A stretch of 64,000 nucleotides of DNA from a virus, in IMG/VR virus record IMGVR_UViG_3300013005_000002, positions 1 to 64,000 of that record. One strand, written 5' to 3'. A program made the translations under genes and the position numbers. The notes beneath the pieces were generated by a model that did not search any database, was not told the DNA's origin, and saw only the letters and a program-made list of their open reading frames with translations. Of this stretch, positions 8,249 through 46,332 are shown piece by piece. Position 1 is the first letter of the stretch. Every line of letters starts with the position of its first letter.

Positions 8249-8446
8249 TTAGTCATCAAACACACTATCTGTTGAATTTCTTTGAGGAAATTCAAGTTTT
8301 ACATCAGGCTGTAATATAGACATTACGGCTTCAATCCAAGCTAAAGATACTTGTAGTTCTCCAGGTACATCGTATGTTGTACCATTGCGATAGTTTTGTT
8401 TAGCCATTTCATTAATTTTATTTATTTGTTCATTAGTTATTTTCAT
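8249..8446 (-). CDS. Hypothetical protein (MKITNEQ...)
   Basis: ORF track with the start moved to ATG 8446. Confidence 0.55.
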   Translation of the reverse strand: MKITNEQINKINEMAKQNYRNGTTYDVPGELQVSLAWIEAVMSILQPDVKLEFPQRNSTDSVFDD

Positions 8447-8606
8447 AAAAAACGCTCCAATATATATTAAACGCAATCTGATAATCTAAAATAAGTTCAA
8501 GTGGATAAAAAACTTTAATAAATTCATATGATGTATTTAAATGTGAGTATAAAATAGGTTCATACATGTCATAAAAACCAAAATCAATATTTTTATATTT
8601 TCTCAT
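8433..8606 (-). CDS. MKKY-family microprotein, 57 aa
   Basis: MRKYKNIDFGFYDMYEPILYSHLNTSYEFIKVFYPLELILDYQIAFNIYWSVFYENN; ATGA overlap with upstream ORF. Confidence 0.75.
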   Translation of the reverse strand: MRKYKNIDFGFYDMYEPILYSHLNTSYEFIKVFYPLELILDYQIAFNIYWSVFYENN

Positions 8607-8767
8607 GTAAAAAATCCAAAAAAATGATAAGTATAAAATTCAAAAAGTTTAAAATTTTGTGTTATTTTAAATTTCATTACATCATCCCAATATTTTTTAT
8701 ATAAAATATGTCTAAGATTAGGTGAAGAAATTTTATTAACAGTAAATATTATTTTATATTTTCTCAT
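8603..8767 (-). CDS. MKKY-family microprotein, 54 aa
   Basis: MRKYKIIFTVNKISSPNLRHILYKKYWDDVMKFKITQNFKLFEFYTYHFFGFFT; upstream ORF ends NEKI* inside the motif. Confidence 0.75.
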   Translation of the reverse strand: MRKYKIIFTVNKISSPNLRHILYKKYWDDVMKFKITQNFKLFEFYTYHFFGFFT

Positions 8768-9197
8768 TATTCCACTTTACTTGACACATTTTAAAAGCTT
8801 TATCTTCATCTATCTTCTTCATCGTTTCACTAATCACACAATTATTATAAAAAACCGCGCATTCATATGTCATATTTTTACTTGGTTCATTTAAACATAC
8901 ATTTGCAATAAGTGTAAGTAAAATTTTGCTCATTTTTTTATCCTATTGCATATTACTTCTGGCGTATTATATGCATTCCATACAGACATAAACATTAATC
9001 CAAGAATAAATGCACTAGACACTAAAAATGTTTGCTTACTCATAGTTCACCCACTTCAATCCAAGCGTCAGTTAATACCATAAATAATTTCATATCTTCT
9101 TGTATTTTTAAACATACTTTAGTAGTAAGTAAGCCTAGTATATCTTTTTCTGGATTATAGTATATTTTCAAAGTGTATTCCTTGGTACAATATTATT

Positions 9198-10010
9198 TTA
9201 ATTACGTTCATTAGAGATGACAGTTCCATTATTACTAATAGTAAAGCGACAATTAGTATTATCTGTTGTTATAAAATTTCCATTAGTTAATATCACAAAT
9301 CTTGTATTTCTACCTTCTATGTTTTCACTGAAACTTGCTAAATATTTTCCATTAGATAATTTTAAAAACACTTCGTTATACGCACCTTGGGCTCCACAAG
9401 GATCATAAATTTCAACAATGTTATTATATCCTTGTAAAATTGCTAGCTGGACTAGAATAGAATTCATTTGGGTTTGTAAGTAAGTAACATTACTTTGGAC
9501 AGACATATTGTTAGATTCCAAAGAGTTTACTTGTAGTTGTAATGCATTTAGTTGAACCTGAGTAATTGAGCTTTGATTGCTTAGACTTGTAAGTATTGTG
9601 TTAGTCATACTCAAATTATTTTGTAAATTATTAATAGACATTAATAAAAGAGACGTATTTTCTTCTGCTGCATTAATTTTACCTTCTAATACTGAAGTTA
9701 CTGACATTGTAGAAGTTATCTGAGAAGAAAGAGAGTCAAGTTGAGATTGTAAATCTACACTGTTGGCATTCAAAGCTAATAAACCAGAATTAATAGTGTC
9801 GATTCTTCCGTTTATATTAGATCCTTGTAAAATTAATGCTTCATCTAAAGCAACTAGTTGTGTCTGAGTGGACATATATTGTGACTCAAGTTGTGTTACT
9901 CTGGATTTTAAATCATCAATTTGATTTTGTAAGTAATTTGGATTAAATTTCTTCTGGCTACATCCCGATAAAATTATAATTATTGATACTAATAGAGATA
10001 TATTTTTCAT
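9198..10010 (-). CDS. Lipoprotein with long coiled coil and C-terminal Cys-containing beta domain
   Basis: Lipobox LSGC; heptad repeats; DPCG...TTD..C. Confidence 0.75.
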   Translation of the reverse strand: MKNISLLVSIIIILSGCSQKKFNPNYLQNQIDDLKSRVTQLESQYMSTQTQLVALDEALILQGSNINGRIDTINSGLLALNANSVDLQSQLDSLSSQITSTMSVTSVLEGKINAAEENTSLLLMSINNLQNNLSMTNTILTSLSNQSSITQVQLNALQLQVNSLESNNMSVQSNVTYLQTQMNSILVQLAILQGYNNIVEIYDPCGAQGAYNEVFLKLSNGKYLASFSENIEGRNTRFVILTNGNFITTDNTNCRFTISNNGTVISNERN

Positions 10011-10672
10011 TTTTTACATTCCTCCTGTAATAATTCATGAGTTCTTACTGCAGTAGCTTGACTTGTCCCACTCATTGTAACATATCTTTTTTTAATCCCA
10101 AAGGATTTTATCTCTTTACCTTTTCTCCAAATCATATCATTTAATCCATAATTACTATATTTATCTTTATTAAGTAATCCTGAGCCGCTTCCTACTACAT
10201 CGATGTTCTTCATGTTGTAACTAGCTGGATAGTATGGAGTTTTTGTTATATCATTATTATGATTTCCTGCTGCCACTACTACTTTTGTTCTTTGTGTAAG
10301 AACAAGTAATTGTAGGAATTCCGCAATATAGAAATCATTTCCACCAGCCGAGAAGTTTACATATTCCATTCCTAATTCTCTTGCTTTTTTAAAGCATTCA
10401 GCACTTAAATTTACTGGTTCTTTTTTACTATTTGTTGTTAAAAATTTACAAGAATAAAGCTTGACTCTGTTACACACTGGTGTTTTTAAGTCTGGACCAT
10501 ATAGTACAATACCAGCAATGTGTGTTCCGTGGCCGTGGTCATCAGATAAATCTACTTTATCCTGAGATGCTAAATACTTAGCAATTTCAGGTACTTGCGA
10601 CGATACTCCAGTATCTACTACCATTACTTTAATGTCTTGTGCTAATAAGAGTGAAAATAATAAATAAACCAT
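10007..10672 (-). CDS. Secreted subtilisin-like (S8) serine protease
   Basis: VVDTG, HGHGTHIAG, AAGN, SGTSQAT catalytic motifs; hydrophobic N-terminus. Confidence 0.9.
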   Translation of the reverse strand: MVYLLFSLLLAQDIKVMVVDTGVSSQVPEIAKYLASQDKVDLSDDHGHGTHIAGIVLYGPDLKTPVCNRVKLYSCKFLTTNSKKEPVNLSAECFKKARELGMEYVNFSAGGNDFYIAEFLQLLVLTQRTKVVVAAGNHNNDITKTPYYPASYNMKNIDVVGSGSGLLNKDKYSNYGLNDMIWRKGKEIKSFGIKKRYVTMSGTSQATAVRTHELLQEECKK

Positions 10673-10677
10673 AATTA

Positions 10678-10707
10678 ATTGTATACCTTATGTTTAAATT
10701 ATGTCAA
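10678..10707 (-). promoter_or_regulatory. sigma70-type promoter (near-leaderless)
   Basis: TTGACA-N18-TACAAT, 5 nt before ATG 10672. Confidence 0.6.
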
Positions 10708-10866
10708 ATATTTTAATTGTACTTCAGCAATTGTTTTAAGTCTTATAAAAAGAGGATAATAAATAGAATTACTAAGTTTTGATTCTAATTTAATTAAAAT
10801 TGTAATATTAAATTTATACCTTTCATAATTATTTAAATAAATTTTTAGATTTTGATATTTTTTCAT
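10699..10866 (-). CDS. MKKY-family microprotein, 55 aa
   Basis: MKKYQNLKIYLNNYERYKFNITILIKLESKLSNSIYYPLFIRLKTIAEVQLKYLT. Confidence 0.75.
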   Translation of the reverse strand: MKKYQNLKIYLNNYERYKFNITILIKLESKLSNSIYYPLFIRLKTIAEVQLKYLT

Positions 10867-10867
10867 A

Positions 10868-11035
10868 TTAAATCATTCCGAGTAATTTATGTTTATAAAT
10901 AAAAAAGGATTGTTTTATGGTGGGATAAATTGATTCAAAAGCCCATAAATGAAGTTTACTTCTAAGTGAATATATTACTTGTTCATCTATATTAGAATAA
11001 ATCATTTTAGCGCCAATATTTTTATACTTTTTCAC
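10868..11035 (-). CDS. MKKY-family microprotein, 55 aa (GTG start)
   Basis: MKKYKNIGAKMIYSNIDEQVIYSLRSKLHLWAFESIYPTIKQSFFIYKHKLLGMI; GTGA overlap with VWA gene stop. Confidence 0.75.
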   Translation of the reverse strand: MKKYKNIGAKMIYSNIDEQVIYSLRSKLHLWAFESIYPTIKQSFFIYKHKLLGMI

Positions 11036-12183
11036 ACTAACCTCAATACTTTACCAAAAGTAGCTGGGGGTTCTTGATTACCTACTCCTACCCATAGAAA
11101 TGGTTTTTTTGGGTCTTCTGGCTTATCGGCACAGTCAAAATCCCCAAGATACAATATAGCGTCACAATTTAATCCCAAAGCTTTAGTTATAGCAGGAGAA
11201 TATGCCGTTCCACCCGCGCCAAATCTCTCCATAGGAATTTTATTCTTATTGTCAATTTTGACAACTTTTTGCACAACACAATCCGCATATATTAAATGTG
11301 CTTCACTCACATTTTTACTAATGTCAACAATCTCACTCATAAATGTATTAAACTGTTCATCGCTTATAGACCCAGATGTATCTATGCATACACCAAGTCT
11401 AAGCTGTCTATCTTTTTTCTTACCTGGCACATCAAATCCAAAGCGTCTATTGGATTTTCTTCTTGTACCTATTGTCTTTCTACTAGTTGCATTAGCTACA
11501 AAATTTCTTAGAATTTGTTTCCAGTTATGTTGTGACTCGGGTTTAAGTGATTCTATTGTCTTAATTAAATCAGATGGTACATTGCCGTGACTTGCTTTTA
11601 CTGCATCCTCTGCAATTCTTGACAATATAGCTTTTTCTAATTGTTGCTCAGATTCTGATAATTCACCGTCTTGTTCATTTTTAGAATGGTCATCAACCGT
11701 TGACATACCAGCTACTTTTTGTTTACAAGAATCAGGAGCTTGTTCTATTAAATCATAATAATACTGCGCAGTTTGAAATCCTAATACATTATTATTTTTA
11801 ATAGCTTTTTTAAAAGTTTCTAAGGTTACAATGTTCTCACCAAGTACTTCTATCCCTTTAATGTATTGGTTAATACAACAATCCGTTGCGATATTCCAAT
11901 TATGCATTTCTGCTTTGTTATTAATATCATAGAATGATTTCTTTGTGTGTTTAAACAATTGATGTAATATTTCATGCTTCAGTACCTTAGTTACATTATC
12001 AGGTCCAATCTTTTTTAAGAATTCAGGATTAAACCCTAAAACGCTAGTATTATTTTGGATTGTTGCGTATGCAGTTTCTACTTTACTATCGTAAATAATT
12101 TTAGACATTAAAGTAAAATGAGCATAGAATGGCTCATCTTTTAATAAATTATAGATAGCATTTTCTAAACTGTACACAGACAT
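11032..12183 (-). CDS. Metallopeptidase-like/VWA domain protein (DUF2201-like)
   Basis: HEILH; WNIATDCCIN; MIDAS DTSGS; GGT. Confidence 0.85.
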   Translation of the reverse strand: MSVYSLENAIYNLLKDEPFYAHFTLMSKIIYDSKVETAYATIQNNTSVLGFNPEFLKKIGPDNVTKVLKHEILHQLFKHTKKSFYDINNKAEMHNWNIATDCCINQYIKGIEVLGENIVTLETFKKAIKNNNVLGFQTAQYYYDLIEQAPDSCKQKVAGMSTVDDHSKNEQDGELSESEQQLEKAILSRIAEDAVKASHGNVPSDLIKTIESLKPESQHNWKQILRNFVANATSRKTIGTRRKSNRRFGFDVPGKKKDRQLRLGVCIDTSGSISDEQFNTFMSEIVDISKNVSEAHLIYADCVVQKVVKIDNKNKIPMERFGAGGTAYSPAITKALGLNCDAILYLGDFDCADKPEDPKKPFLWVGVGNQEPPATFGKVLRLV

Positions 12184-12187
12184 ATCT

Positions 12188-13240
12188 CTACCTCTTATTA
12201 GCTATTTTATTACAGAATTCAACATCATTCAACAATAAAACTTTAGTAGTAAAATTACATTCACTTAATGTTTTAAATGTTTTTAATGCCAATTCCATTG
12301 GAATATCCAATAAAAATTGCTTTAAATTTGCCAAATCTTTTTCTTTTAAGAACTTTGGATTTGTCTCTATCTTGGATTCTAATTCTTTTAGTGGCTGATT
12401 TAAGTAATCCAGCCGGACTTCTTCTTTTTTTGTCATCATCTCTAAGATTTGCTCTCTTCTTTTAGGATAATTCTGTAAAATATCTTTTAAAGATAAAGTT
12501 TTCTCTTTTTTAAGCTTGAATGAAATAAAACTACTTGCGGCACTTGTCCCGACTAATCCAGCATAAAGCTCAAATCTTTGCTTATCAATAGTTGCTTCAT
12601 TTTCTAATGGATTAATAAAATCCATCCATGCTCTTGGATTAGGTTCTATTTTACTTGTGTCAAACTCTGATTTGCGTTCTTTCACTAACATCTCATGGTG
12701 ATTTCTAATGAAGTCAGCTATAACATCGGCACCTTTGGATTCTGCATATCCAATAAACTCTTCTACTGTCGGTTTAAAGTCAATGTGACAAAATCTTGAC
12801 ACCAAGGCAGAATCAGAGATATCAGTCGTAGAATATGAATTAGAATTATAATTTCCTGCTACAACAATATGCCATCCTTCTGGTAAAGTGTGAGTGTGCA
12901 TTTTGCGTGTTAGGACAAAAGGAAACATAGCTTGTAGTACATCGGGATGTGCTCTGTTAAACTCATCCAAAAAAATGACACCTTTACCTGATGTAGGAAA
13001 CCATTCGGGACGCATGTGGTAACTTGTTTTGCTATCCTGATCTTTATCCATTAAACCAATTAGGTCACCTACTTCTTGAGTAGCCAAGTATAATGGAATA
13101 AATCCAAAATCTTCGCCCAATTCTTTAGTACATTGTCCCACAACTTGTGTTTTACCCAAGCCATGAGAACCATGTAAGTATGGAACAATATTATGTTTTA
13201 AGAGTACAGGAAACACATTTTTAAAGCTTGCAATATTCAT
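12188..13240 (-). CDS. MoxR-like AAA+ ATPase
   Basis: GSHGLGKT; IFLDEFNRA; DSALVSRF; PRAW. Confidence 0.85.
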   Translation of the reverse strand: MNIASFKNVFPVLLKHNIVPYLHGSHGLGKTQVVGQCTKELGEDFGFIPLYLATQEVGDLIGLMDKDQDSKTSYHMRPEWFPTSGKGVIFLDEFNRAHPDVLQAMFPFVLTRKMHTHTLPEGWHIVVAGNYNSNSYSTTDISDSALVSRFCHIDFKPTVEEFIGYAESKGADVIADFIRNHHEMLVKERKSEFDTSKIEPNPRAWMDFINPLENEATIDKQRFELYAGLVGTSAASSFISFKLKKEKTLSLKDILQNYPKRREQILEMMTKKEEVRLDYLNQPLKELESKIETNPKFLKEKDLANLKQFLLDIPMELALKTFKTLSECNFTTKVLLLNDVEFCNKIANKR

Positions 13241-13270
13241 TTTATCCTCCGATATTGAATATGTTATTAT

Positions 13271-13918
13271 TTATTTCTCGTATTTACCAGCTAAAACTAC
13301 ATCCATGAGTGTTTTTTTAATTTCACCCTCTACTGCATACAAACCTTTACCATCTTTATATTCAATTGCCATGCCATCGGTGCTATGTAATTTTTTATTC
13401 TTTAATTTAATTGCAACTGGTTTTTCTGTGCAGACAACAATTTCATCAAAAGTCCAGTAAATACCACAGTCTTTGATTAAGTCATTAGTTATGTCAACTA
13501 GTGGATCTTTCTCTACTGGCAACTCATAAGCAATGAAAGAATAAAAAGCTACCCAGTAAGCGTCTAGTGATCCATATGATGCAGTTTCAGCTTGCTTTTT
13601 AATTTCATTTTCTGTTAATTCTTTTAAAGGTAAATCACCTACAATATCAGGAGCTACTTTTTGTAATTCTTTTGTTGGCTTACCTTCTGCTAGACTTGCT
13701 GCAATGCGCACACCTTCATATGGACTATCTGCCCAGATGACACGCTTAAACATCGGCAATTTTTGATATTCATAGACCTTAGCTAACGCTGCCTCGGCTT
13801 TTTGTCTATCACAAGGCTCTGTAGATAAACCAATATCCAGATATCTTTTTTCATATTCTGGTAGTTTAGCCTCTTGCTCTGGCGTCAATTTGTCAATTTG
13901 TTTTTTTTCTTTACTCAT
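13271..13918 (-). CDS. DUF6745-like protein
   Basis: LTPEQ..; WADSP; YGSLDAYWVAFY; LHSTDGMAIEYKDG. Confidence 0.65.
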   Translation of the reverse strand: MSKEKKQIDKLTPEQEAKLPEYEKRYLDIGLSTEPCDRQKAEAALAKVYEYQKLPMFKRVIWADSPYEGVRIAASLAEGKPTKELQKVAPDIVGDLPLKELTENEIKKQAETASYGSLDAYWVAFYSFIAYELPVEKDPLVDITNDLIKDCGIYWTFDEIVVCTEKPVAIKLKNKKLHSTDGMAIEYKDGKGLYAVEGEIKKTLMDVVLAGKYEK

Positions 13919-13928: not shown

Positions 13929-14141
13929 TTAAGTTAAATTTTCTATTAAGTAATTAGTAAAATAATAAGCTTTTCTATAATCAATGTATACCGAATGAAA
14001 ACCAGAGTCTATATCATAATTAATTTTATCTAAAAATTGACCCATTTGATAATTAAGATGGTCACTAAGAAATAAAGATTCAATAGGCCAATTAACTACA
14101 TGTGTTTTTTGTTCAAACTTTAAATTACTGTACTTTTTCAC
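13929..14141 (-). CDS. MKKY-family microprotein, 70 aa (GTG start)
   Basis: ORF track MKKYSNLKFEQ...; GTGA overlap. Confidence 0.75.
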   Translation of the reverse strand: MKKYSNLKFEQKTHVVNWPIESLFLSDHLNYQMGQFLDKINYDIDSGFHSVYIDYRKAYYFTNYLIENLT

Positions 14142-15124
14142 TTAATCAAACCTTTACGTTTTGCCTCAATAAATCGATACATTAATTCATTACCATTCAT
14201 ATATTCACTATCTTTTTTTATCTTAAAAAAATCATAATAAACAGAATATGCATATAAAAACAAACCCATACTCCAAAAAAAGTGAGCAAAATATAATTTA
14301 AAAAAATCCATAAAATCATATAAAAATAACATTTAATTCTCCCTAGAATATTCATATTGTTTTTCCGCAAGGTATTCCAGCTTGTCACACCATGCATCAT
14401 AAGCCCACGCATCAACTAAGTCATTACATTTTTCTAGGATTGTCTCTTGTTCTTTTATTGGAAAACTAGAAAGCTTTCTTTCTACTTGACTATCGTGGTC
14501 AAATATTGAAGCAATGAAATAATCACAGTTATTTGCTGATGTAGCGTTTAGTTCAAGCTCTACTTCAATTTGTGCGCAATACTCACCATCGGTTGATGTA
14601 AAGTGATCCGACTCAAATAAAAATGTTTTTGTCATGTTCTTACTCCTTTAGTTATTATATCTTAGTCTTTAGTCCAAAGCAATTTATTTCCGAAGCTGGC
14701 TCTTATTGAGACGCGACCATTCATATACACTACAACTTTACCTTTAAGCATTCCGGCTCTAATAGAATTCTTTCTAAACCTACCAACAATATATTCTATT
14801 TCATCTAGAGATAACCCTGTGATATCACTAGCATATTCTATGTTGTTAGGGTCACTTAGGTAAAAAGATTGCTCAATCATATTTTAATCCTACAGGTAAG
14901 ATATAAGTATTTTCTTCTTTTTTGGATTTTGTTTTCTTATATTTATTTTTATAAATAAGATCTAGGTTTTTTCCACTAGACTTTATTTTTAAACTTCGGA
15001 TGATCCAATTAGCTGAGCCTTGTGAAACATTAAACATTTGAGCTAATTTATAATCACTATAATTAAATTTTTTGTAGGTTTCAATTATTTTATTTTTTAA
15101 ATCAACATTCATTTTATTTAACAT
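14138..15124 (-). other. Run of small hypothetical early genes (14138-14332, 14333-14635, 14662-14880, 14873-15124 HTH-like)
   Basis: Abutting same-strand ORFs. Confidence 0.55.
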
Positions 15125-15578
15125 TTTTTAGTTCCTTTCTTAAAATGTCTAATCCTCTTTTAATTGTTGCTTTTGTTGTATCATAATTTAAATTACGTTC
15201 TTTTGCTATTTCGGAAATAGTCATTTCTCCAAATAAATACTCTTTAACACGTTTTTTTGTTTTTCCATTTAATCTTTCTATTTGATTTATAACTTTAACA
15301 AAAAGCTTGTTGTCCGAGTAAATCACTTCATTATAATCTTTAAACATATTTTGATATTCTTTTGCTAATCTAACGCCATTCTTTTGATTAGTATCTACAT
15401 TTAATAGTGCCAATCTAAATCCTTTATGATAGTAAGTATTTAAATTTTCTATTTTAAGTCCTTTGTTTTTTATTAGAAGATTGTGAAATATGTCCTCAAT
15501 CAAATATTCATCACACTTTGGGTTTGTTTTTTTTAAATAAGATTTCACTTGTAAATACTCTTTTTCAGTTAGTTTCAT
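15114..15578 (-). CDS. ECF/sigma70-like factor
   Basis: Region-2-like IEDIFHNLLIK and region-4 HTH EMTISEIAKERNLNYDTTKATIKRGLDILRK. Confidence 0.65.
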   Translation of the reverse strand: MKLTEKEYLQVKSYLKKTNPKCDEYLIEDIFHNLLIKNKGLKIENLNTYYHKGFRLALLNVDTNQKNGVRLAKEYQNMFKDYNEVIYSDNKLFVKVINQIERLNGKTKKRVKEYLFGEMTISEIAKERNLNYDTTKATIKRGLDILRKELKNVK

Positions 15579-15714
15579 TATTTATTCCTTTACCCAGCCA
15601 AAAACCGCACCAATTAAAAAATATACATAAAATACTGGGAATAGTAAATATGTAAACATGCCGATAAGCCCAGGTAAGAATAGCACTGTTAATATTGTTA
15701 AAATTATAATCATA

Positions 15715-17412
15715 TTAATCCCTAAAATATCCGTAAAAGTTCATATCAGCCTCACAAATCTCATCGGCTAATAAGTCTGTCAACTCTTCTAGTTCATTGT
15801 CGTTTAAATCCTCAAGGTCACCATCAAGATATCCTCCTGAAGAAATGTGAGAGTCACAAGCTGAATGTCTACCTAATTCAATTTCGAGTTCTACAGGTCT
15901 ATTCTTATAAGTTGTTTTCATTTTACACGTCCTATTCTTTTTACTTCTTTAAGATTAAACCATATTCCAATTTGATATGGATTATTTTGAGTTACAAATA
16001 CATTAACAGATTCTCCGTCTACTCGATTTACAACACCTGTTTTACCTGGTAAGCCTTTTTTAATTCTAACAATATCTTTCGATTCAATAGGTCTATTTTT
16101 ATATGTTGTTTTCATTTTAAATATCCTCCCTAAAATAATCCTCAATTTCATTTTTTGCATCTCTAAAGTCACAGTTCAATAGAATGCTTGCAATTGAACT
16201 CGCCCACATGTATTGTATGTTTTTATAACAATATCTTAAAACATCATCTATTTGTTGTTTATCAAACAAGTCATTCATATTATCACTTGAATTACTCATT
16301 TAAACATTCCTTTCACTAATGCTTTAAAAATAGCATATATTGGATATAAAATATATAAAGAGTATAATAGTATAAACGGTGAGAATAGGATGAATATTGC
16401 TGTTAACATTTATTCTCCTCCAATTTGTTGTTTTAATTCATTTACAATATAATGATCGTAGTTTAGTGCATTTTCTTGATATTGCCCCACAAATCCCCAA
16501 CATGAGTCGATATGTTCCCAACCTATGTCAACTTCTGGATTCCATTTTTCTAGCACATATCCAAAGACACCGTCATCATTAATTCTTTGAATCATTTTCT
16601 TTTTATCAATTTCTAATTGTTTAGCGTCAATGTCTGGATTAGTCTTTGGACAGTAAGCATCTCCTAATAAATCATTGATTGGGCAACGATCGTCTGGAAT
16701 TTCTACAATGCGATAATTGTTTTGTTGTAAAATGATACGTTTCATAACTATGTCCTTTCACTTAAAGATTCATTTAAGTCATAAATAATTGAATTTACTA
16801 GGTTATTTCTTTCTTGATCTGTCATCTTGTATTTATTGATGCAATCCCCTGCATAGCTGGATAAAACGTCAATCAATAGTCTAGTACCTTGTCTTGACAG
16901 AATTTCATTTAAAACTTTAACATCATTCTTTACTTGGTCAACATCACCATAATTTGTTGTAATACTTGAAACATAACTCATAAAATCTCCTTTATTAAAA
17001 TGATTTATAAATAATTGTTTCGTCGTCAACTTGGATTACTGTCGTGTTGTCTTGTAAATCCTCCAAAGACTCGCACCCAGTCTCGCGCTCTATATCTTTG
17101 ACATCAATCTCGCTGTAGTCACAGCATAGTGCAATAACGTCAAGCTCTAATTCCATGTCGCAGTCTTGCTCAAGCTGCTCCAAGTGCTCAAATAACGCTC
17201 TTAATCCTGCCCGGCTGAACTGGTCTTGTCTGCCATAAGCTGTGAATGCTCTGATAAAGTCTGATTCATCGATTGTTTGTTTCATTTTACTTCCCTCCGT
17301 TTGATTGTTTAATAATACACATTAAAAACACAACAACACAAATTAAATATCCATATTGGCCTAAAGTGATATTAGCTACAGAACATAAGGATATTAATTT
17401 TACTGTTTCCAT
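15715..17412 (-). other. Cluster of small early genes (15715-15921, 15918-16115, 16117-16299, 16410-16745, 16748-16981, 16995-17285 and a 41-aa ORF starting at 17412)
   Basis: Tightly packed same-strand ORFs with GGAG/GAGG SDs. Confidence 0.6.
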
Positions 17413-17439
17413 TGTCGCCTCGCTTGTACATATATCTAT

Positions 17440-17455
17440 TGCAATCGTTCGGCCA
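17440..17455 (-). promoter_or_regulatory. sigma54 (-24/-12) promoter heading the early operon
   Basis: TGGCCG-AACGA-TTGCA; predicted +1 near 17429, GAGG SD and ATG at 17412. Confidence 0.65.
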
Positions 17456-17610
17456 CCCTTGAATCAATTATAACACTTACTCGCACCACCCACACTGTCA
17501 AAAAATCATACAATTTATCAGTTTACCCGGCTAACCTGTTGATTTTACGTGCATTTCGCCACTGTAAAACTTACATGCATTTTAAAAAACTTATACGCAT
17601 CAAAATTAGA

Positions 17611-17640
17611 TTGACAAAATAACAAGTTAGAGTGTATCAT
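17611..17640 (+). promoter_or_regulatory. sigma70-like promoter containing a TAACAAGTTAG motif in its spacer
   Basis: TTGACA-N18-TATCAT; motif at 17620-17630. Confidence 0.5.
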
Positions 17641-17644
17641 AATG

Positions 17645-18060
17645 AGAACAACTGGTTGACAAGGTAATAGCTGCAAAATCAAGGCCTTAGTCAATTTGAT
17701 ACAGGTAATAGCTCGGATGGCACAAGGGTATTCTTCCCTTGAGTAAGTGGATGAACCTCAAGACTTATAAACTTGAGGTGGCATTAAATAGGCTTTACTC
17801 ATAACCTGTATTGACGCTCACTAGAATAGCGAGACACTCTAGCCACTTCTAAATAACGTCTCAATCCGAGACAAATTATATCCTCACTGGATAGTTAGTG
17901 AATATTGTCTCAAAACAAAGCACATTTGCTGTTTTAGCTTGAACCTTAGAGTGAAGCCGAAACAAAGTGAAAGGCTGAACGCTTCAAGCGTAAAACCACA
18001 TCCCAAAATGATACGTCACGGATTAGTGGATTTTATTAAAAATCGGTGTATTAAATCGGG
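17645..18060 (+). ncRNA. Candidate structured RNA or structured DNA element
   Basis: ORF-free about 400 nt with several nested inverted repeats, downstream of a promoter-like site. Confidence 0.35.
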
Positions 18061-18070
18061 ACTACCCCAA

Positions 18071-20032
18071 TTAGTTTAAAAATTCATTGTTTTCATTGGA
18101 TATAATCTCAAAATGAATCAAGTCTAAAAATGAAAAATCATCCATTTCTACAATTTTAAAATCATAATCTGGAAAGTCATGAGACAATTGAAACATTTTA
18201 ATTTGAGACTCGGCATAATTATTGCAAGTGTTCTCAATTGAAGATACTTCTTTGTTATTTAATAGTTTAATACCTTTAATTTTCACCATAAAATGAACTC
18301 CTTATATCCAATAAGCGTTATAACTTGCCACTACCTTATTATAATGGCATATAATCCAAACATGAAGTGTATAATGTAGTATGTATCATATTGCTACATA
18401 TATAGACAAAGCATGAGTGTAGTAATTTGAGACATAATCCAGAAAGAGTGTATTAAACTGAGATTGGAATTATTCTCATCAATTTTCAATTCAATCATTT
18501 TCTGTTTACACTCCACTCAACAACACTATCAATATTCTGTCTACTTGTTGGCATAATTCTTGCAAACTCTAATGCTATTGCAAGTATCATACCAATGAGT
18601 ACTAATCCTATTATTTTTTCAAACATATATTCTCCTTTTGAGATAAATAAAAATCCATCCTGTTAACCCCCCGATTGCGTTTCCCCCCCTTAAGCTTCTA
18701 TCCACTGTAACAATGCCTCTATCGTCTTGTTGTGAATACCATTGAACCCCATGTCTCTTAGTACTTCGAACATGGCAAAGTCCATGTATCGAGGGCTACA
18801 ACTATACTTAGACTGCCACGTGACATTGAACTGCTCTGCCAGTCTTGTCTTGTCAACATGTTGTTTTATATCTTTGAACTTCATATCATCCAACCTTTGG
18901 AAGTATGAAGATTAACTCATAGACGTTATCCACGCAATTGTAGCCATAAGTCTCGCACAAGTTGATAACATGTCTATCAATTTGACTGATGTACTTCTTT
19001 GACTTGCGCTTAGACCTGACAATGCTGCTTGCAAGTTCTGTGCCAGAATAATGTTGTTGCAATTGTACCAGTCTTTGTGAGATGATATAGGATTCCGGAT
19101 TCTGGTTTGAATATTCTAGACCTAGTTGTTGTTTCATATAATCATCCTTTCCTGTTTACGTAAACGTGTCACTGTTGGCTTTGGTTGAATTTTTTTAGTC
19201 CGTTGGGGTTTAGTCACCCCATCGGCGTAACCGGGTTTGCAGACAACATAGAGCGCATTCATTGAGCCGACTGGTAGTTTCACTTGACACCCCCCTCTTG
19301 AATAGACATAGATCTGAATTCAAAGGGCAGGAACCCTTGACGGTCAACGGTGGACCCGTGAGCCTTGCAGATCTGCAGTCGGTAGGGTTCCAGGTCTTGC
19401 CATGAAAGATACAGCCTTAAGACTGAAGACTTGCCCTTGCCTCGGTATTCTGGTGGGAACTGATATCTGAAGCCAAGCCTATAGACATAGTTGCCTAGGT
19501 CTAGGGCCATGAGGCCTTTGTCCTTTGGAGTCTTGCCTAGGTGAATCTCTATGAAAGCCGGACACCCTGTTGGGCTGGTGTCGTGAGATACAAGGTTGAT
19601 TTTTAAAGTTTTAAAGTCCACGTTACTCCTCCCCATTGTAGCAAGTTTCATTCTGCAAAGTATCACTGATGTCCCACCCATTCTGAACTTGATCGTACAG
19701 GAAACTGATAGGGACATCGATGATAGACTCTGAACTTGAAGCTCTGAATGTATCGTTGTCTAGGGTTTCAATTTTGAGTTCATTCTCGACTGCGTATTGT
19801 ATACATAGAGCCTTAATTTGGATTGCATGTACTTGTTTCATTTTTTTTCTCCTTTGTTTGCGACCTATAAAATTTATCGGTTAATCTAAAAAAAACTTGA
19901 GTACTTTCTTAATTTATTTTTTTTCTCGGAACGGTACACTTGTTTCCGGTCTGAGTCAAACATTAAACCGTAGAGTCCCACAAGTAGAGATACACCCACC
20001 ATTATATTAGTTGTAACGTCGGGATTCAACAT
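18071..20032 (-). other. Small early genes (18071-18289, 18690-18893, 18886-19137, 19134-19283, 19280-19621, 19623-19841, 19886-20032)
   Basis: ORF track plus SD-based start revisions; visibly higher GC than the rest of the window. Confidence 0.55.
18549..18594. promoter_or_regulatory. Face-to-face pair of sigma54-type motifs
   Basis: + TGGCAT-AATTC-TTGCA at 18549-18564; - TGGTAT-GATAC-TTGCA at 18579-18594. Confidence 0.55.
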
Positions 20033-20035
20033 ACT

Positions 20036-20239
20036 GTCTCCTTTTGAGATGCGTATCATTATAGGATTTGTATACTGCATATGCTGTGCCAATGTCTAGA
20101 TGGGTTTTATTTGATCTGGAGTGGTGTCGGTGTCAACTGGATGAGCGTATCATTGTGGGATAGCTGAATGATTACATGGAGTTAGGTTGCAGGTGTTAGG
20201 ATGCTGACATGTCAATAAGTTATGCGTTTCATTTGATAC
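20036..20239. repeat. Second cluster of the GT(A/C)TCA-N3-TGA(G/T)AC palindrome
   Basis: 20036 GTCTCC-TTT-TGAGAT; 20053 GTATCA-TTA-TAGGAT; 20147 GTATCA-TTG-TGGGAT; 20226 GTTTCA-TT-TGATAC. Confidence 0.55.
20076..20091 (-). promoter_or_regulatory. sigma54 (-24/-12) promoter
   Basis: TGGCAC-AGCAT-ATGCA, followed by AGGAG SD and ATG at 20032. Confidence 0.65.
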
Positions 20240-20338
20240 GGGGGTATAGCGGTTCTGTGGGTCTTGATATGTGCAAATATAGCCACACAGCAAACGGACC
20301 ATTTTTTCATATTTTTTGCTAAATACATGTGTCCAAAA

Positions 20339-20349
20339 TAACAAGTTAG
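20339..20349 (+). promoter_or_regulatory. Late-promoter-like motif
   Basis: TAACAAGTTAG about 20 nt before ATG 20369. Confidence 0.65.
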
Positions 20350-20368
20350 ATAAACCCCTGGAGTTAGT

Positions 20369-21112
20369 ATGAAGATAATGTCTAGCACGTGTAAATGTTG
20401 CAAACAAACCAAAACAAAGATAGCTAAAAAAGAAGGAAATAAATTTAATTATGTTGATGAAAATAATACACTCTGGAAAGGTAGGTATTGCCCTTCCTGT
20501 AAAAAAGAATATACAGCAAGTTACAATAAACTAAAGCCCCGGCCATCCGCCTACAAAAAATCAACTAAACCTCTTTTGGATAAAACTTGTACTGTTTGCA
20601 AAACAGAGTTTAAAACAAAAAATCCAAGACAAGGACTATGTTCTAAGGAATGCAGAAGACAAGTTAAAAATTTAAAACGTAGAAAACCTCTATCTCCTAA
20701 AAAAGTAAAAGAACCAAAAATTGTACATCCTAAAAATTGTCTGACATGCAGTAAAAGCTTTTTACCTAAAAACTCACGAGGTAACTATTGTCAAAAAAAA
20801 TGTATGCCTAGTGAAATTAAGTATCGCAAGAAAAGTAATCATACCGCTGCTGCCAAAAAACTAAGAAAACAACGAAAGCTTGTGCAAAAGTTTAAACAAC
20901 CTATATCAAAGAAGTTTAAAAAAGAAATATTAGAAATATACGCTAGTAAACCTGAAGGATACGAGATAGACCACATTGTGCCTATAAACCATCCTGACGT
21001 ATGTGGATTACATGTGCCTTGGAATTTAAAAGTTTTAGCTAAAGAAGATAATTTAAAAAAGTCTAATAAGTTTGATGGTACTAATGAAAATAATAATTGG
21101 GCTATCCTATAA
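20369..21112 (+). CDS. HNH endonuclease with N-terminal zinc ribbons
   Basis: Multiple CxxC; EIDHIVP..CGLHVPWNL..N..KSNK. Confidence 0.85.
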   Translation: MKIMSSTCKCCKQTKTKIAKKEGNKFNYVDENNTLWKGRYCPSCKKEYTASYNKLKPRPSAYKKSTKPLLDKTCTVCKTEFKTKNPRQGLCSKECRRQVKNLKRRKPLSPKKVKEPKIVHPKNCLTCSKSFLPKNSRGNYCQKKCMPSEIKYRKKSNHTAAAKKLRKQRKLVQKFKQPISKKFKKEILEIYASKPEGYEIDHIVPINHPDVCGLHVPWNLKVLAKEDNLKKSNKFDGTNENNNWAIL

Positions 21113-21269
21113 ATAGTACACTATTCTTCATTACTCTCCAATACAACTTGCTATACAGGGATAAGGATAGTCCTGTATAAATGTTAGACCTTAAATCAAT
21201 TGGCATTGAAAGCACGTTAATTGTTCTATCTAAATTAAACACTATTACTACCCTATTATATTTTCTCAT
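21102..21269 (-). CDS. MKKY microprotein a, 55 aa
   Basis: MRKYNRVVIVFNLDRTINVLSMPIDLRSNIYTGLSLSLYSKLYWRVMKNSVLFIG. Confidence 0.75.
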   Translation of the reverse strand: MRKYNRVVIVFNLDRTINVLSMPIDLRSNIYTGLSLSLYSKLYWRVMKNSVLFIG

Positions 21270-21418
21270 TAATAATACACTTTCCGCATAATAGCTAGAT
21301 ACACCATAAAATACTGAGGACCACTTTCTGCAATTATAGTTTCTACGCTTGGTGACAATAATCCTATGTATTTAAATTTATAAACATTAGTTACTTCTAT
21401 GTTTTTATACTTTCTCAT
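21269..21418 (-). CDS. MKKY microprotein b, 49 aa
   Basis: MRKYKNIEVTNVYKFKYIGLLSPSVETIIAESGPQYFMVYLAIMRKVYY; paralogue of d. Confidence 0.8.
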   Translation of the reverse strand: MRKYKNIEVTNVYKFKYIGLLSPSVETIIAESGPQYFMVYLAIMRKVYY

Positions 21419-33449: not shown

Positions 33450-34764
33450 CTTCTAATAGTACCATAACTGCAAGCTCACTTAAACCACTAAATACTCTAT
33501 CTCCTGTATTTAATTGATTGTATTGGTCTAATTTATCTCCATAAGCAAATTCTGAGTGCTTTAGTAATCCTAGAGGAATTGGAGTTGTATTAGTTTTAAG
33601 TCCAATAGAATTATCATAGGTCCAGGTTAATGGATCTTCTTCATACATATATTCTTTAGCTTCTTCTAAGTACTTAGCGGTAATCATGTCTGGTGCTACT
33701 TCTTTAATTAATCCAACAAAATACAAGTTATACCAGGATTTACTTAAGTTAAAGATATATCTAAGCGCAAATCTATACACAAACTTTTCAACCTTAGTGT
33801 CAGCAAGCTTTAAAAGGATGTAAAGCGCATGAACACAATTGGCATCATTGAAATATCCACGTCTATCTGGTAAATATGCGGTAGGTAATAATGATAACAA
33901 TGAATAACCTTTTTTATAGAAAAGATTCCAATATTCTTTTTCACTGCTTTTGGATTTATTCTTTTTAGCGTTAGTTTTAAGTGCTGCCAGAATTGTTAAA
34001 GCTTGTGCTCCTACAGTTTCTAGTCCAGGTTGAAACATTGCCCGACTGGATTTCATTCTTACTGCCTCTGGTCTTAAACTAGCTTCTTTTAATCGTTTAT
34101 TCCATAGAGTTTTATATGGTTCATCTGGTGGTTCTTGTGCTTCAAGTATAGAATAATCAAACTCTATGATATTACTAACTAATTGGTCATATTTTTCAAG
34201 AAGCAGTTCTTGAGATGAATTTTGTAAATTAGTATCAAGCATAGCTAAAGATAAACCTAAAAGCATATCACCTGATGTAGATTTCATATTAAATATAAAT
34301 TTATTCTCTGTGTAATCCCACTTGTAGCCGCGAGCTAAGTAGTTACCTTGCATACACTGAGTAAGAGCATAATCCATCTGAGCATTTCTTTTGCCTAGTT
34401 TAGACATTAAAAATACATACTGACCATGTCTCAATAGCTGATGGTCCGGACTGTGGTTTGCTCCGTTTAAAACATCAATAAGCTTATTTCTAGGTAAGTA
34501 TAGCTCATAGAATTCATTCTTAAGTACAGGAAGAAATTTAAGGATTTTTTGCATCCGTTGAGTCTTTTGCGTTTTATTTAAACGCCTAGCGACAGGAGGA
34601 CGTTTTTTATATTTAAATTTATTGTATAAAATACCGTAGATGCCTAAACATCCAATAAGTAATAGTTTAATTGGAAGACTAATCCAATGTAAAGTATCTC
34701 TAATAATATTTTTAAATGTATTGGTTTTAACATCAGTAACAATTTCTAAATATTTATTTAACAC
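33406..34764 (-). CDS. Hypothetical 452-aa protein with N-terminal membrane anchor
   Basis: ORF track; AGGAG SD. Confidence 0.7.
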   Translation of the reverse strand: MLNKYLEIVTDVKTNTFKNIIRDTLHWISLPIKLLLIGCLGIYGILYNKFKYKKRPPVARRLNKTQKTQRMQKILKFLPVLKNEFYELYLPRNKLIDVLNGANHSPDHQLLRHGQYVFLMSKLGKRNAQMDYALTQCMQGNYLARGYKWDYTENKFIFNMKSTSGDMLLGLSLAMLDTNLQNSSQELLLEKYDQLVSNIIEFDYSILEAQEPPDEPYKTLWNKRLKEASLRPEAVRMKSSRAMFQPGLETVGAQALTILAALKTNAKKNKSKSSEKEYWNLFYKKGYSLLSLLPTAYLPDRRGYFNDANCVHALYILLKLADTKVEKFVYRFALRYIFNLSKSWYNLYFVGLIKEVAPDMITAKYLEEAKEYMYEEDPLTWTYDNSIGLKTNTTPIPLGLLKHSEFAYGDKLDQYNQLNTGDRVFSGLSELAVMVLLEDEIYENITNPKSFN

Positions 34765-34922
34765 AAATAATCTCCTAAATTAAAAAATTCATCTTCTCTA
34801 AGAATATCTACAGTATCAACTAATTTAGTAGTATATTTAATAAAAAAGTTATCCCTAAAAAATGGGTATTTTTTAGCTAATATACCAGGAGTGTCTACCT
34901 CTATTTTTTGATATCTTTTCAT
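34758..34922 (-). CDS. MKKY-family microprotein, 54 aa
   Basis: MKRYQKIEVDTPGILAKKYPFFRDNFFIKYTTKLVDTVDILREDEFFNLGDYLC; ATGA overlap. Confidence 0.7.
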   Translation of the reverse strand: MKRYQKIEVDTPGILAKKYPFFRDNFFIKYTTKLVDTVDILREDEFFNLGDYLC

Positions 34923-43436: not shown

Positions 43437-43471
43437 ATTTTTTAATTACTTGTATTTTTTAGAGATTATCC

Positions 43472-43500
43472 TTGACTTTTATGTATTTTTTAGAGATAAT
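43472..43500 (+). promoter_or_regulatory. sigma70-type promoter
   Basis: TTGACT-N17-GATAAT. Confidence 0.65.
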
Positions 43501-43521
43501 AATTTACATAGGAGTTTTTCA

Positions 43522-44985
43522 GTGACAAAAAAATGTAGTAAATGTAATTTAGAAAAAACTTTAGATTTATTTCCTAATTTAAAAAGGTCTAAAGACGGCA
43601 AGTATCCTCAATGTAAAGAATGTAAATCAAGTATAGATAAACAATATTATAGTTTTAATTCCGATAAAGTTAAAAATAATGCAAAAAATTATTATTCTAA
43701 TAATAAAGAAAACATTCTTCAAAATATAAACAAAGAAGCTAAGTCTCTATATAGAAAACAATATTACGAAAAAAATAAACATATTGAATTAGAAAACGGC
43801 AAGCAATATAAAGAACACAATAAAGAGTTTCTTTCTAAAAAAAGATCAGAGTATCGTAAAGAAAATAGAAATAAAATTAATGAATATACTAGAAATCGTA
43901 AAAAAGTAGACCCGTTGTTTAGACTAGGTATTAATTTAAGAAAAAGACTTGGTGAAGTATTAAGAAATAAAGATATCATTAAAACCCAAAAACTTAATGA
44001 TTATATAGGATGTTCTAAAGATGAACTAATTAAACACATAGAATCTCAATTTAAATCTAATATGAATTGGGAAAATTACGGAACTGTTTGGAATATAGAC
44101 CACATAATCCCTTTGTCTGCTGGCAAAACAGAAAACCATCTATATCAGCTTTCACATTATAAAAATTTACGCCCATTAGACTGTATGGAAAATTTTAAAA
44201 AGAATAATAAAATTGAAGTGTGTTGGCAAAAATTTCAAAGAGATAAAAACTTAGATAATGATATTAAAAGTGGATTTAATTTTAATTTAACTCCTTCTGA
44301 TTTCATTCTTTCTATAGAAAAGCTTTCATTAGAGCATAGAAAATTTATTCAAAAATATGAATGGTTAGGTACAATTGGATTTGGGGTTAAGTGGGTATTT
44401 ACCGCTAGATATAAGGACGATTTGGCTGGGGTTGTTATGGTATCCGAACCTAATTCATACCATTTTGGTAAGGAAGAGGCTTTGATCCAAAGAGGAGCGG
44501 TATCTAGTTGGGCTCCTAAAAATTTAAATAGTAAATTAGTTATGTTTGCTTGTAGATGGATGGTTAGAAATACAGAAAAAAGAATTTTTACTGCTTATTC
44601 TGACGTTGAAGCTGGTGAAATAGGAACTATCTATCAAGCTTGTAATTTTGATTACTTAGGGCAAGGATTTGGTGCGTCGGTTTACTATAAATTAGCTGAT
44701 GGTAGAGTGAAAGGATCTAGATATTTTACTAGAACTTCTGCTATGAAAAAATGGGCTAAGGAGTTAAACATTGAATGGAAATCAGAATGGTGTAAGGCAA
44801 ATGGGTTTCAAGACGTAGCTAAAATCCCTCAAATCATAAAAGATTATGCTAAAGAAAAGATGAAAGAATGTGAAAAAGTACAACAATTGTCCAAACACAA
44901 GTATGCATTATTATTAAATTATGGTAAAAATAAAATTAATAAGCAATGGATACCTAAACCATATCCAAAAAGGATTAAGGATTAA
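43522..44985 (+). CDS. HNH endonuclease fused to a Mom-like (GNAT-fold) DNA adenine modification domain
   Basis: GTG start after AGGAG; N-terminal CxxC..CxxC and W.IDHIIPL..HYKNLRPL..EN.KK; C-terminal FIQKYEWLG..APKNLNSKL..AYSDVEAGEIGTIYQACNFDYLG. Confidence 0.7.
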   Translation: MTKKCSKCNLEKTLDLFPNLKRSKDGKYPQCKECKSSIDKQYYSFNSDKVKNNAKNYYSNNKENILQNINKEAKSLYRKQYYEKNKHIELENGKQYKEHNKEFLSKKRSEYRKENRNKINEYTRNRKKVDPLFRLGINLRKRLGEVLRNKDIIKTQKLNDYIGCSKDELIKHIESQFKSNMNWENYGTVWNIDHIIPLSAGKTENHLYQLSHYKNLRPLDCMENFKKNNKIEVCWQKFQRDKNLDNDIKSGFNFNLTPSDFILSIEKLSLEHRKFIQKYEWLGTIGFGVKWVFTARYKDDLAGVVMVSEPNSYHFGKEEALIQRGAVSSWAPKNLNSKLVMFACRWMVRNTEKRIFTAYSDVEAGEIGTIYQACNFDYLGQGFGASVYYKLADGRVKGSRYFTRTSAMKKWAKELNIEWKSEWCKANGFQDVAKIPQIIKDYAKEKMKECEKVQQLSKHKYALLLNYGKNKINKQWIPKPYPKRIKD

Positions 44986-45400
44986 ACATCCTACTCTTTC
45001 TATCAGTTCTCACACCTAAGTCAAGGTGAACCCACGTCGTGACCTTACCTTTAGTAAAATCAGGATTTTCCAACCACAGCTCATATTTCTTTAGTACCTC
45101 AGGCTTCCCTTTCAGTATCCCCGCTATACTCTGCTTACTATCATCCAAAATGTCCACAGCTAAGCACTGTGTATGCAAGCTCTTCTTAGCAGCATTTGCA
45201 ATCTGCGCATTTACAGCACTTGGTCTAAATCCTGAACTCACCTTAAGCTTAGTTGTATCAATCCCGCACTCAGCCAAACAAGCATTTACAGCTTTAAGCA
45301 ACTTTGCTGCATTATCCAAATATTCTTGCGTAAGTTCCTTATTTTTTTCTCTGTCTGGATATGCTCCGCTTGCTGTCAAATATTCACGTAAATCAATCAT
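44975..45400 (-). CDS. Peptidase M15-type endolysin
   Basis: SSGFRP..N; KSLH....AVD; WVHLD. Confidence 0.85.
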   Translation of the reverse strand: MIDLREYLTASGAYPDREKNKELTQEYLDNAAKLLKAVNACLAECGIDTTKLKVSSGFRPSAVNAQIANAAKKSLHTQCLAVDILDDSKQSIAGILKGKPEVLKKYELWLENPDFTKGKVTTWVHLDLGVRTDRKSRMFNP

Positions 45401-45557
45401 AAATTTCCTCTATTGATGTTATAATATGGTGTATTTCTTGTCTAGTACTAATTATTTTCCAAAATAACCATCCATAATTAGTGCGATAAGTCATGTCAGA
45501 AAGAAATCTAGAAATTCTAAACGTGTCTCTACTCAATACGTTATTATATTTTTTCAT
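45393..45557 (-). CDS. MKKY-family microprotein, 54 aa
   Basis: MKKYNNVLSRDTFRISRFLSDMTYRTNYGWLFWKIISTRQEIHHIITSIEEIYD. Confidence 0.75.
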   Translation of the reverse strand: MKKYNNVLSRDTFRISRFLSDMTYRTNYGWLFWKIISTRQEIHHIITSIEEIYD

Positions 45558-45736
45558 ATTAAATTATCTCCCGATAAATCATTACACAAAAAATATAGTA
45601 AATTATAAACATTAAAATCCATAAATAATCCATGAAAAAATATACTACCATAATAAGCTACTCCTAATTGTATAAACAAAAAAGGAGCCATTTTTGCGTT
45701 AGAATCTGTTCTTAAAACTGCATTATACTTTCTCAT
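45554..45736 (-). CDS. MKKY-family microprotein, 60 aa
   Basis: MRKYNAVLRTDSNAKMAPFLFIQLGVAYYG...; upstream gene ends DEKV* inside the motif. Confidence 0.75.
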   Translation of the reverse strand: MRKYNAVLRTDSNAKMAPFLFIQLGVAYYGSIFFHGLFMDFNVYNLLYFLCNDLSGDNLI

Positions 45737-46177
45737 CTGCTTCAACTACATTACCTTTTTTATCATAAAATTTTAAAATCAAGCATTGCTCGTGAGTATC
45801 ACCATCCATAGTAGTTTCCAGCGTATATTTCTTAACTTTACTAATATCTACAATATCAGCAAAATCCTCTAAGTCCAAGTAACAATTACCTTTTTTATCT
45901 TTTTTCACTTTAATATTTTTCATAACTTTACCTCATATTCATTAAATAATTCATATAGTTGCTCTCTTACTGCCTCAAGTACTGCTACTGTAATCTCTGG
46001 ATGTGTCTTTAATAACTCAGCAAGTTTAGGATCACTCGATGATTCATACTTTAATGCTGATCGTAAATATGTCATGTCTAGTTCCCATAAAATACAGTGC
46101 ATGGCTCCGGCTTTGCAAGTAGTTTCATATTCTTCTCTTTCTTCTGGTAAGTTAAATTCTAGTATAGCTTTTGGCAT
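45723..46177 (-). other. Two hypothetical genes (45723-45923, 45920-46177)
   Basis: ORF track. Confidence 0.65.
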
Positions 46178-46332
46178 ATTACACTTCCTGTCTTATTTAG
46201 TACGTCTAGTTTTACCCACCAACGTTCTAGTTTAGCCGGGCGTTTCACATAAGTTACACCTAGCTGCATCCATAACACAAATCCAAAACGCAGAGGGTAT
46301 TTGTAATTAGAAATAGGTTGATATTTTCTCAT
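46159..46332 (-). CDS. MKKY-family microprotein, 57 aa
   Basis: MRKYQPISNYKYPLRFGFVLWMQLGVTYVKRPAKLERWWVKLDVLNKTGSVICQKLY; GAGG SD. Confidence 0.75.
   Translation of the reverse strand: MRKYQPISNYKYPLRFGFVLWMQLGVTYVKRPAKLERWWVKLDVLNKTGSVICQKLY

Follow-up and report, generated by a model that had tools for sequence, protein, structure and literature searches.

Genes with a common seven-residue start in one lake-water phage lineage: a variable microprotein family probably reshuffled at its head

What unites a series of very small phage genes that begin with the same few codons and sit exactly between unrelated genes? The question is raised by the minus strand of positions 1-64,000 of the IMG/VR virus record IMGVR_UViG_3300013005_000002 (the window, i.e., the whole 64,000-nucleotide stretch analyzed; the whole contig has 79,790 bp). 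An initial annotation had listed twelve genes with an MKKY-like start in the window and proposed that they spread into early or middle transcription units like a miniature mobile gene. We find one recognizable family of 23 minus-strand open reading frames (ORFs) of 47-70 amino acids (aa), 12 of them dispersed and 11 in tandem at 21102-22792. Their common start is M-(K/R)-K-Y-(K/N/Q)-x-(I/V/L), and sharing is limited to these first seven residues, hereafter the head. We think it probable, though by no means certain, that the 23 genes form one lineage-specific, fast-changing family of accessory microproteins that is reshuffled at the shared head, with the heptapeptide as a handle. The family is not an autonomous mobile element.

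The whole genome was scanned on both strands with the pattern [ATG]TG-ARR-ARR-TAY. This gave 27 matches, while 2.8 were expected by chance in order-2 Markov simulations. Besides the 23 family members, the matches comprised stubs of 4, 11, and 15 aa and one site within the gene at 73541-74365. The number of 40-85-aa ORFs opened by the motif was expected to be 0.18 (maximum 2 in 200 runs), compared with 23 observed, and about 1.02 Mb of loci from related phages held three such ORFs altogether. A profile of the family, run on its own genome, returned exactly the same 23 places. All twelve previously listed ORFs were found on the minus strand with the start M/V/L-(K/R)-(K/R)-Y, and the GTG starts (units at 10868 and 13929) and the TTG start (23195) were verified, each retaining an NTGA overlap with the upstream stop. 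The tandem array, which is the parent cluster of the family, was not among the twelve. For two units alternative upstream starts are possible (34931 ATG, 45745 TTG); the head-based starts match the family. The whole-genome scan detected no member on the plus strand, which bears out the strand bias described earlier. As the minus strand carries about 100 of roughly 150 ORFs, among them almost every small accessory ORF, this bias partly reflects the location of the accessory genes. The family makes up about 15% of the genes of the phage, or about one gene in seven.

Conservation extends from the ATG to about +21 nucleotides (nt) and no further. The sequence upstream of the ATG showed no conservation among the units, and no inverted repeats or hairpins bounding the units were found. 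In the head, residue 2 is K (13 units) or R (10), residue 3 is K in 22 of 23 units, residue 4 is Y in all of them, and residue 5 is K, N, or Q in 19. Position 6 is mostly N, position 7 is I, V, or L in 21 of 23 units, and position 9 is hydrophobic in 17. The first seven codons read ATG-ARA-AAR-TAT-[K/N/Q]-x-[I/V/L], with six different codons used at position 7, and the use of AAA and AAG in the heads (31% AAG) is at or above background. What is conserved in the head is therefore the protein sequence and not merely the DNA.

Behind the head the units have little in common. Alignment of the bodies in 253 pairs gave a mean z of 0.27, and clear homology was seen only between units b and d and between g and i, both array-internal. 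Comparing the bodies as DNA was concordant with the protein result and added only some shared 3' ends. The element F..(I/M)QLGV.Y, previously noticed in the units at 45554 and 46159, is indeed shared by them, although the resemblance is weak (z = 4.1 for the aligned bodies). Aromatic and aliphatic residues abound in the bodies (Y 9.3%, F 7.7%), and alanine is scarce.

Seven orthologue pairs were compared between the window and a 94%-identical relative. All frames were open, and 19 synonymous and 25 non-synonymous changes gave a pooled ratio of non-synonymous to synonymous substitution rates (dN/dS) of 0.31 (binomial p = 2e-4 vs. neutrality). With a dN/dS of about 0.03 in neighboring enzymes, the units are about ten times more relaxed. 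Their GC content falls over the three codon positions (0.35, 0.26, 0.19), a gradient of the coding type, and ORFs of their length are improbable in DNA of 27-32% GC. Judged by these sequence features, the units are with good probability real genes. That the ORFs are spurious or decaying, and that a repeated DNA motif merely happens to open frames, is scarcely credible. Such an origin would agree with a body composition like that of randomly translated AT-rich DNA, with weak Shine-Dalgarno (SD) sequences, and with structure models of low confidence. It is contradicted by the pooled dN/dS, by orthologues that are all open-framed at 4-16% nucleotide divergence, by the end-to-end tiling of units with overlapping stops and starts, and by runs of about 50 open codons, each with a probability near 0.02 as estimated from base composition.

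The units are joined into polycistronic operons by stop/start overlaps, and most have no SD of their own. The upstream stop is overlapped by 19 of the 23 heads, by 4 nt (NTGA) in 11 cases, by 14 nt in six, and by 1 nt (TAATG) in two; several units also run into the start of the large gene that follows (the PDZ gene, the 33406 gene, the endolysin gene). An SD of -4 kcal/mol or better precedes 22% of the units, compared with 78-88% of the other phage genes (p = 3e-4) and 15% of random positions. The overlaps and the scarcity of SDs indicate that translation of the units probably proceeds by coupling or reinitiation; where an SD is missing, (re)initiation may be aided by the A-rich head.

The same data are the basis of the main rival explanation, which we regard as rather unlikely. 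According to it, the head is mainly an RNA signal, an A/U-rich module (AUGARAAARUAU) for SD-independent initiation or for termination-reinitiation, and the MKKY peptide is a by-product. A-rich codons after the AUG raise initiation. Besides the few usable SDs and the 19 overlapping starts, it is favored by the variation within the first 12 nt, which consists of A/G transitions only, and by the use of AGA for all ten arginines, whereas about 64% would be expected. An RNA signal does not account for a position 7 that is held at I, V, or L by six codons differing at their first and third bases, for the hydrophobic position 9, or for AAA/AAG usage that matches background. Other A-rich starts (MKN, MKT) occur in phage genes without the pattern of Y4 and a hydrophobic residue 7, and a search for a RegA-like translational regulator found none.

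Close relatives differ from the window in these units. Presence/absence variation, which spread of the genes would lead one to look for, was found. In a 98%-identical relative (L110) the unit at 34758-34922 is missing; 162 bp are replaced by 7 bp, leaving a precise empty site with TAATG at the end of the gene upstream and with an ATG start, in place of GTG, for the gene downstream. In two relatives from two different samples, both 94% identical to the window (L005 and L152), the array consists of six units instead of 11. It lacks units k, j, i, and h, the PDZ gene is joined directly to unit g, and the flanking alignments overlap by exactly the 12-nt head. In the same relatives a different unit X replaces c and b, with homology to unit c ending 20 nt into X, unit a is only about 50% identical to that of the window, and at the 10699 site the head is retained and followed by an unrelated body.

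Individual units also vary as alleles. The 13929 unit has a dN/dS of about 1 and exists in three mosaic alleles, and the allele P0012 is a mosaic. The head of the 24736 unit reads MRKYR in the window, MRKCY in L005, and MRKYY in P0001. The L005 orthologue of the 10868 unit carries an in-frame 3-nt indel, and the 23195 unit has a dN/dS of 0.09 relative to its L005 orthologue. Altogether, about 10 of about 18 comparable units differ by presence, replacement, strong divergence, or mosaicism. The relatives thus differ by gain or loss of units, by replacement, and by mosaic alleles, and the breakpoints lie at or just after the head.

Side observations show that other sequences in these regions vary as well. 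A 232-aa ORF of the GIY-YIG homing-endonuclease type (L005:567-1265, minus strand in that locus) is absent from the window, where its site corresponds to about 25390-25457, between the plus-strand genes 25200-25463 and 25535-25711. The last array unit borders on a plus-strand ORF of 247 aa at 20369-21112, the N-terminus of which is Cys-rich (phrog_26577, weak DUF7564 match). L005 and L152 lack about 20244-21101 of the window, and with it this ORF, which is a further strain-level indel. The region 14900-20250, with small ORFs outside the family, aligns to L005 4900-9980 only in islands of 83-89% identity, compared with 94-96% elsewhere. The whole accessory region is therefore plastic, not the MKKY units alone.

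A self-inserting miniature mobile gene would explain part of this pattern: the precise presence/absence at a dispersed site between 98%-identical genomes, the position of the units exactly between unrelated genes with reading-frame junctions kept, and the indels of the homing-endonuclease type nearby (the GIY-YIG ORF in L005 and the plus-strand ORF at the array end). We nevertheless consider active self-insertion very unlikely. Terminal repeats, target duplications, and a conserved 3' boundary were not found, no two dispersed units are near-identical, and the family is missing outside one narrow lineage. The 47-70-aa products match no enzyme family in Pfam or PHROG, and no transposase, nuclease, or integrase was matched in the units by either; a phage integrase was not specifically sought. 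Compared with known autonomous elements (insertion sequences and miniature inverted-repeat elements, homing-endonuclease genes, integron cassettes), terminal inverted repeats, target duplications, and attC-like hairpins were likewise not found, and only the coding head recurs. Near-identical copies that could have been mobilized in trans were absent among the units, whose bodies are unrelated. Since ends, an enzyme, and recent identical copies are all lacking, an autonomous mobile element does not fit the data. Of the initial proposal, one recognizable minus-strand family with variable presence is retained, and mobility in its own right, for which hairpins were also lacking, is not. The placement in early or middle transcription units is unproven as well, since three units lie within the endolysin operon (44975-46332) and an endolysin is usually a late function.

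A closer parallel is provided by the promoter-early stem-loop (PeSL) cassettes in the hyperplastic regions of T4-type phages (Arbiol et al., 2010, PMC2839356; PMC4122927). In both systems near-identical phages differ by insertions, deletions, and replacements, for which a short repeat beside small orphan genes is the point of recombination. As in PeSL cassettes, breakpoints fall in the repeated motif, as seen for the four-unit indel, the exchange of c and b for X, the 10699 body, and the empty site at 34758. In contrast to the intergenic promoter and terminator of PeSL, the MKKY repeat consists of coding sequence, namely the 12-21 nt with which each gene begins. A repeat consisting of a sigma70-like promoter and a stem-loop was not found: promoter-like sites are not enriched (42 vs. 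38.9 expected), and no conserved flanking hairpin was detected. By analogy, the mechanism behind the MKKY units may work like PeSL-mediated modular shuffling, with a coding repeat.

Two further observations concern possible transcription signals. A promoter-like sequence, TTGATT-16-TATTAT, at 25128-25155 (minus strand) precedes the SD-less first unit at 25121, with 7 nt between its end and the ATG, so the transcript of that unit could be leaderless. The 10-mer ARTGTWYTAT occurs 14 times, compared with about 4 expected, chiefly on the minus strand; copies lie where several units end (3') and ahead of two operon starts. As it is read in two frames (..NSVLFIG* and ..RKVYY*), its conservation is at the DNA or RNA level. 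Within it is a TATTAT hexamer resembling a -10 element; a common -35 element was not seen.

In the reading we prefer, reshuffling at the shared head, the family would have grown and scattered by tandem duplication and by unequal or ectopic recombination, with the 12-21-nt head serving as a microhomology handle. As stops in the two remaining frames are present in the head, junctions formed there stay intact. Rapid divergence of the bodies would follow, under selection that is weakly purifying or diversifying. The heptapeptide could be a common handle, an address tag or docking peptide, that shows varied short bodies to one partner, and the resulting toolkit might act in strain-variable host interaction or anti-defense, comparable to the proteins carrying the T4 internal-protein capsid-targeting sequence (CTS). 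Recombination at the head together with duplication and fast divergence fits the data better than transposition. Our best guess as to function, and the only point to which we commit, is a variable accessory toolkit whose members have an N-terminal peptide handle in common.

Several points weigh against this interpretation. ESM and AlphaFold2 models are of low confidence (predicted local distance difference test, pLDDT, 49-59), with one or two helices behind an unmodelled head, and thus do not establish that the bodies fold or that the N-terminal tag is free. In AT-rich phages as a whole, small proteins often begin with MKKY. The composition of the bodies is close to random translation of DNA of 27% GC (r = 0.92, a partly circular comparison), and some units may therefore be barely functional. 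The weak SDs point to selection of an A-rich start at the RNA level, and the head is short. Gain and loss are unpolarized for each polymorphism because more distant relatives do not have the flanking genes. Finally, expression and function of the units are putative.

The closest precedent for such a toolkit is the set of T-even internal proteins (IPI, IPII, IPIII, and the variable IP locus), which like the MKKY units are unrelated small proteins with a short common N-terminus. The T4 internal proteins are varied and have only the 10-residue N-terminal CTS MKTYQEFIAE in common (PMC3012670, PMC8442874), in which residues 4 and 7 carry the targeting (PMC9026906). The set differs between related phages and has been interpreted as a toolkit for an arms race (PMC3012670, PMC9026906). 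The conserved positions of the MKKY head, M1, K2, Y4, and the hydrophobic residue 7, coincide with those of the T4 sequence, Q5 is present in three units, and a conserved N-terminus of about 10 residues on unrelated proteins has its counterpart here in seven to nine conserved positions. In addition, three units lie within the structural/lysis region. It could therefore be asked whether the head is a CTS-like capsid-targeting or ejection tag, and the units variable microproteins that are packaged in the virion and injected with the DNA.

This we regard as very unlikely. An L/I-x-E cleavage site is not conserved at positions 8-10, which are variable, with E at position 8 in four of 23 units. A gp21-like (S77) or other (S78) prohead protease was not detected, as PF03420 and PF04586 had no match in the complete genome, although a divergent protease could escape such a search. 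The MKKY products are much smaller (47-70 aa) than the T4 internal proteins and hydrophobic or aromatic, whereas the latter are hydrophilic and basic. Their 23 copies are scattered in non-structural operons, all on the strand opposite the structural genes. Packaging is hypothetical, and in AT-rich phages an MK.Y start often arises by chance. A broader form of the idea seems quite unlikely, if less so than packaging in the strict sense: the heptapeptide would be a true address tag, CTS-like at positions 4 and 7, that delivers a strain-variable set of 23 microproteins, and the DNA encoding it would also serve as the handle by which recombination reshuffles this set. Delivery toward one phage or host machine might then proceed by virion packaging and ejection or through a common docking partner.

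The bodies themselves offer few leads. Searching the units against Pfam-A and PHROG gave no significant match; the best E-values were 0.014-0.1, each to a different family. A relation to DUF3310, indicated by a weak feature-level lead from the ESM Atlas (0.90), was dropped as Pfam gave no support. AlphaFold2 predictions for unit g and the 13929 unit yielded low-confidence helices only. A strongly hydrophobic segment is present in only four of 23 units, and membrane proteins as a description of the whole family were rejected on this ground; the most hydrophobic member, at 45554, is possibly membrane-associated. MKKY units lie on either side of the gene for a small membrane-anchored PDZ-domain protein (TM-PDZ), and the C-terminal residue is hydrophobic in 15 of 23 units, many such C-termini being dictated by the overlap with the next head. 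A complex prediction of TM-PDZ residues 50-137 with unit k scored 0.04, which counts neither way on binding.

The distribution of the family was followed in the five nearest records of about 80 kb in IMG/VR, four of them at least 95% complete (CheckV) and one 82%. Their nrdJ is 66-74% identical, and about 25% of the genes are in common. The family profile had no match in these five records, which hold 0-2 motif hits. At the endolysin junction of one of them (G001), one unrelated ORF stands in place of five, without an MKKY unit. As the accessory genes flanking nrdJ are not common to family-level relatives, an empty-site comparison there is uninformative. Among 1.84 billion representative proteins, the profile search returned ten matches, all alleles of the phage's own lineage, and a word-based homologue search with the 69-aa unit likewise retrieved own-lineage alleles only. 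Two heads at a spacing of 137-167 nt were present in 84 stretches of IMG/VR; those outside the own lineage were dismissed as chance or as other paralogue pairs starting with MKKY (MKKYRVTL..., MKKYIHINQH...). A repeated N-terminal tag of another kind was not found in related loci. With matches confined to its own lineage, the family is a young, lineage-restricted expansion.

An orphan family of about one-seventh of the genes thus escapes gene callers and family databases, while close relatives reveal gain, loss, and exchange of such genes through a recombination handle in coding sequence. If the head is a peptide tag, it would give experimental access to the function of hypervariable phage micro-genes and a link to the T4 internal-protein paradigm.

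The phage itself is uncultured, and the sequencing runs containing it are lake-water metagenomes. Runs X3-X5 contain 68-77% of its sequence words, and three metatranscriptome runs from lakes contain 8-10% of the words sampled, a level that does not count as evidence. Its contig has a GC content of about 32% and a terminal overlap, by which the genome is complete and either circularly permuted or equipped with direct terminal repeats. The minus-strand blocks hold nucleotide-metabolism and accessory genes; terminase, a P22-like portal, the major head protein, and tail genes lie in plus-strand blocks. A megablast of 20 kb against cultured phages gave no match, and the best cultured terminase match, in a Silvanigrella phage, is only 27% identical, so that the phage has no available cultured relative. 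The features are listed in Table 1.

Table 1. MKKY units, neighboring genes, and ARTGTWYTAT sites in the window
Feature	Position	Strand	Remarks
MKKY unit, 57 aa, MRKYKNI...	8433-8606	-	second of pair upstream of nrdJ; near-identical allele P0008 in protein library
MKKY unit, 54 aa	8603-8767	-	head overlaps stop of ORF 8754-8933 by 14 nt
MKKY unit, 55 aa	10699-10866	-	26 nt upstream of S8 subtilase gene
MKKY unit, 55 aa, GTG start	10868-11035	-	GTGA overlaps stop of DUF2201/VWA gene
MKKY unit, 70 aa, GTG start	13929-14141	-	upstream of DUF6745 gene
Tandem array of 11 MKKY units (a-k, 47-56 aa)	21102-22792	-	directly downstream of TM-PDZ gene
MKKY unit, 57 aa, TTG start	23195-23368	-	between ORF 23365-23820 and TM-PDZ gene, overlaps both
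MKKY unit, 69 aa, acidic	24736-24945	-	
MKKY unit, 59 aa	24942-25121	-	first gene of operon; no upstream ORF, no SD
MKKY unit, 54 aa, MKRYQKI...	34758-34922	-	missing from L110
MKKY unit, 54 aa	45393-45557	-	stop overlaps start of M15 endolysin gene by 8 nt
MKKY unit, 60 aa	45554-45736	-	most hydrophobic member
MKKY unit, 57 aa	46159-46332	-	first gene of endolysin island; good SD
nrdJ-type ribonucleotide reductase	6268-8142	-	
S8 subtilase	10007-10672	-	
DUF2201 metallopeptidase/VWA gene	11032-12183	-	
AAA_5 ATPase	12188-13240	-	
DUF6745 gene	13271-13918	-	
TM-PDZ protein	22789-23202	-	
M15 endolysin	44975-45400	-	
ARTGTWYTAT site	20463-20472	-	
ARTGTWYTAT site	21113-21122	-	
ARTGTWYTAT site	21272-21281	-	
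ARTGTWYTAT site	21572-21581	-	
ARTGTWYTAT site	23315-23324	-	
ARTGTWYTAT site	24753-24762	-	
ARTGTWYTAT site	25128-25137	-	
ARTGTWYTAT site	26993-27002	-	

Two further loci are of note. The minus-strand cluster at 10007-13918 combines the S8 subtilase, the DUF2201 metallopeptidase/VWA gene, a MoxR-like AAA_5 ATPase, and the DUF6745 gene; the AAA, VWA, and DUF6745 genes are also present in G001, in a changed order. The plus-strand gene at 43450-44985 encodes a 511-aa protein with an N-terminal endonuclease VII/HNH-like region and a C-terminal Mom-like DNA-modification domain (PF25680, phrog_1384).

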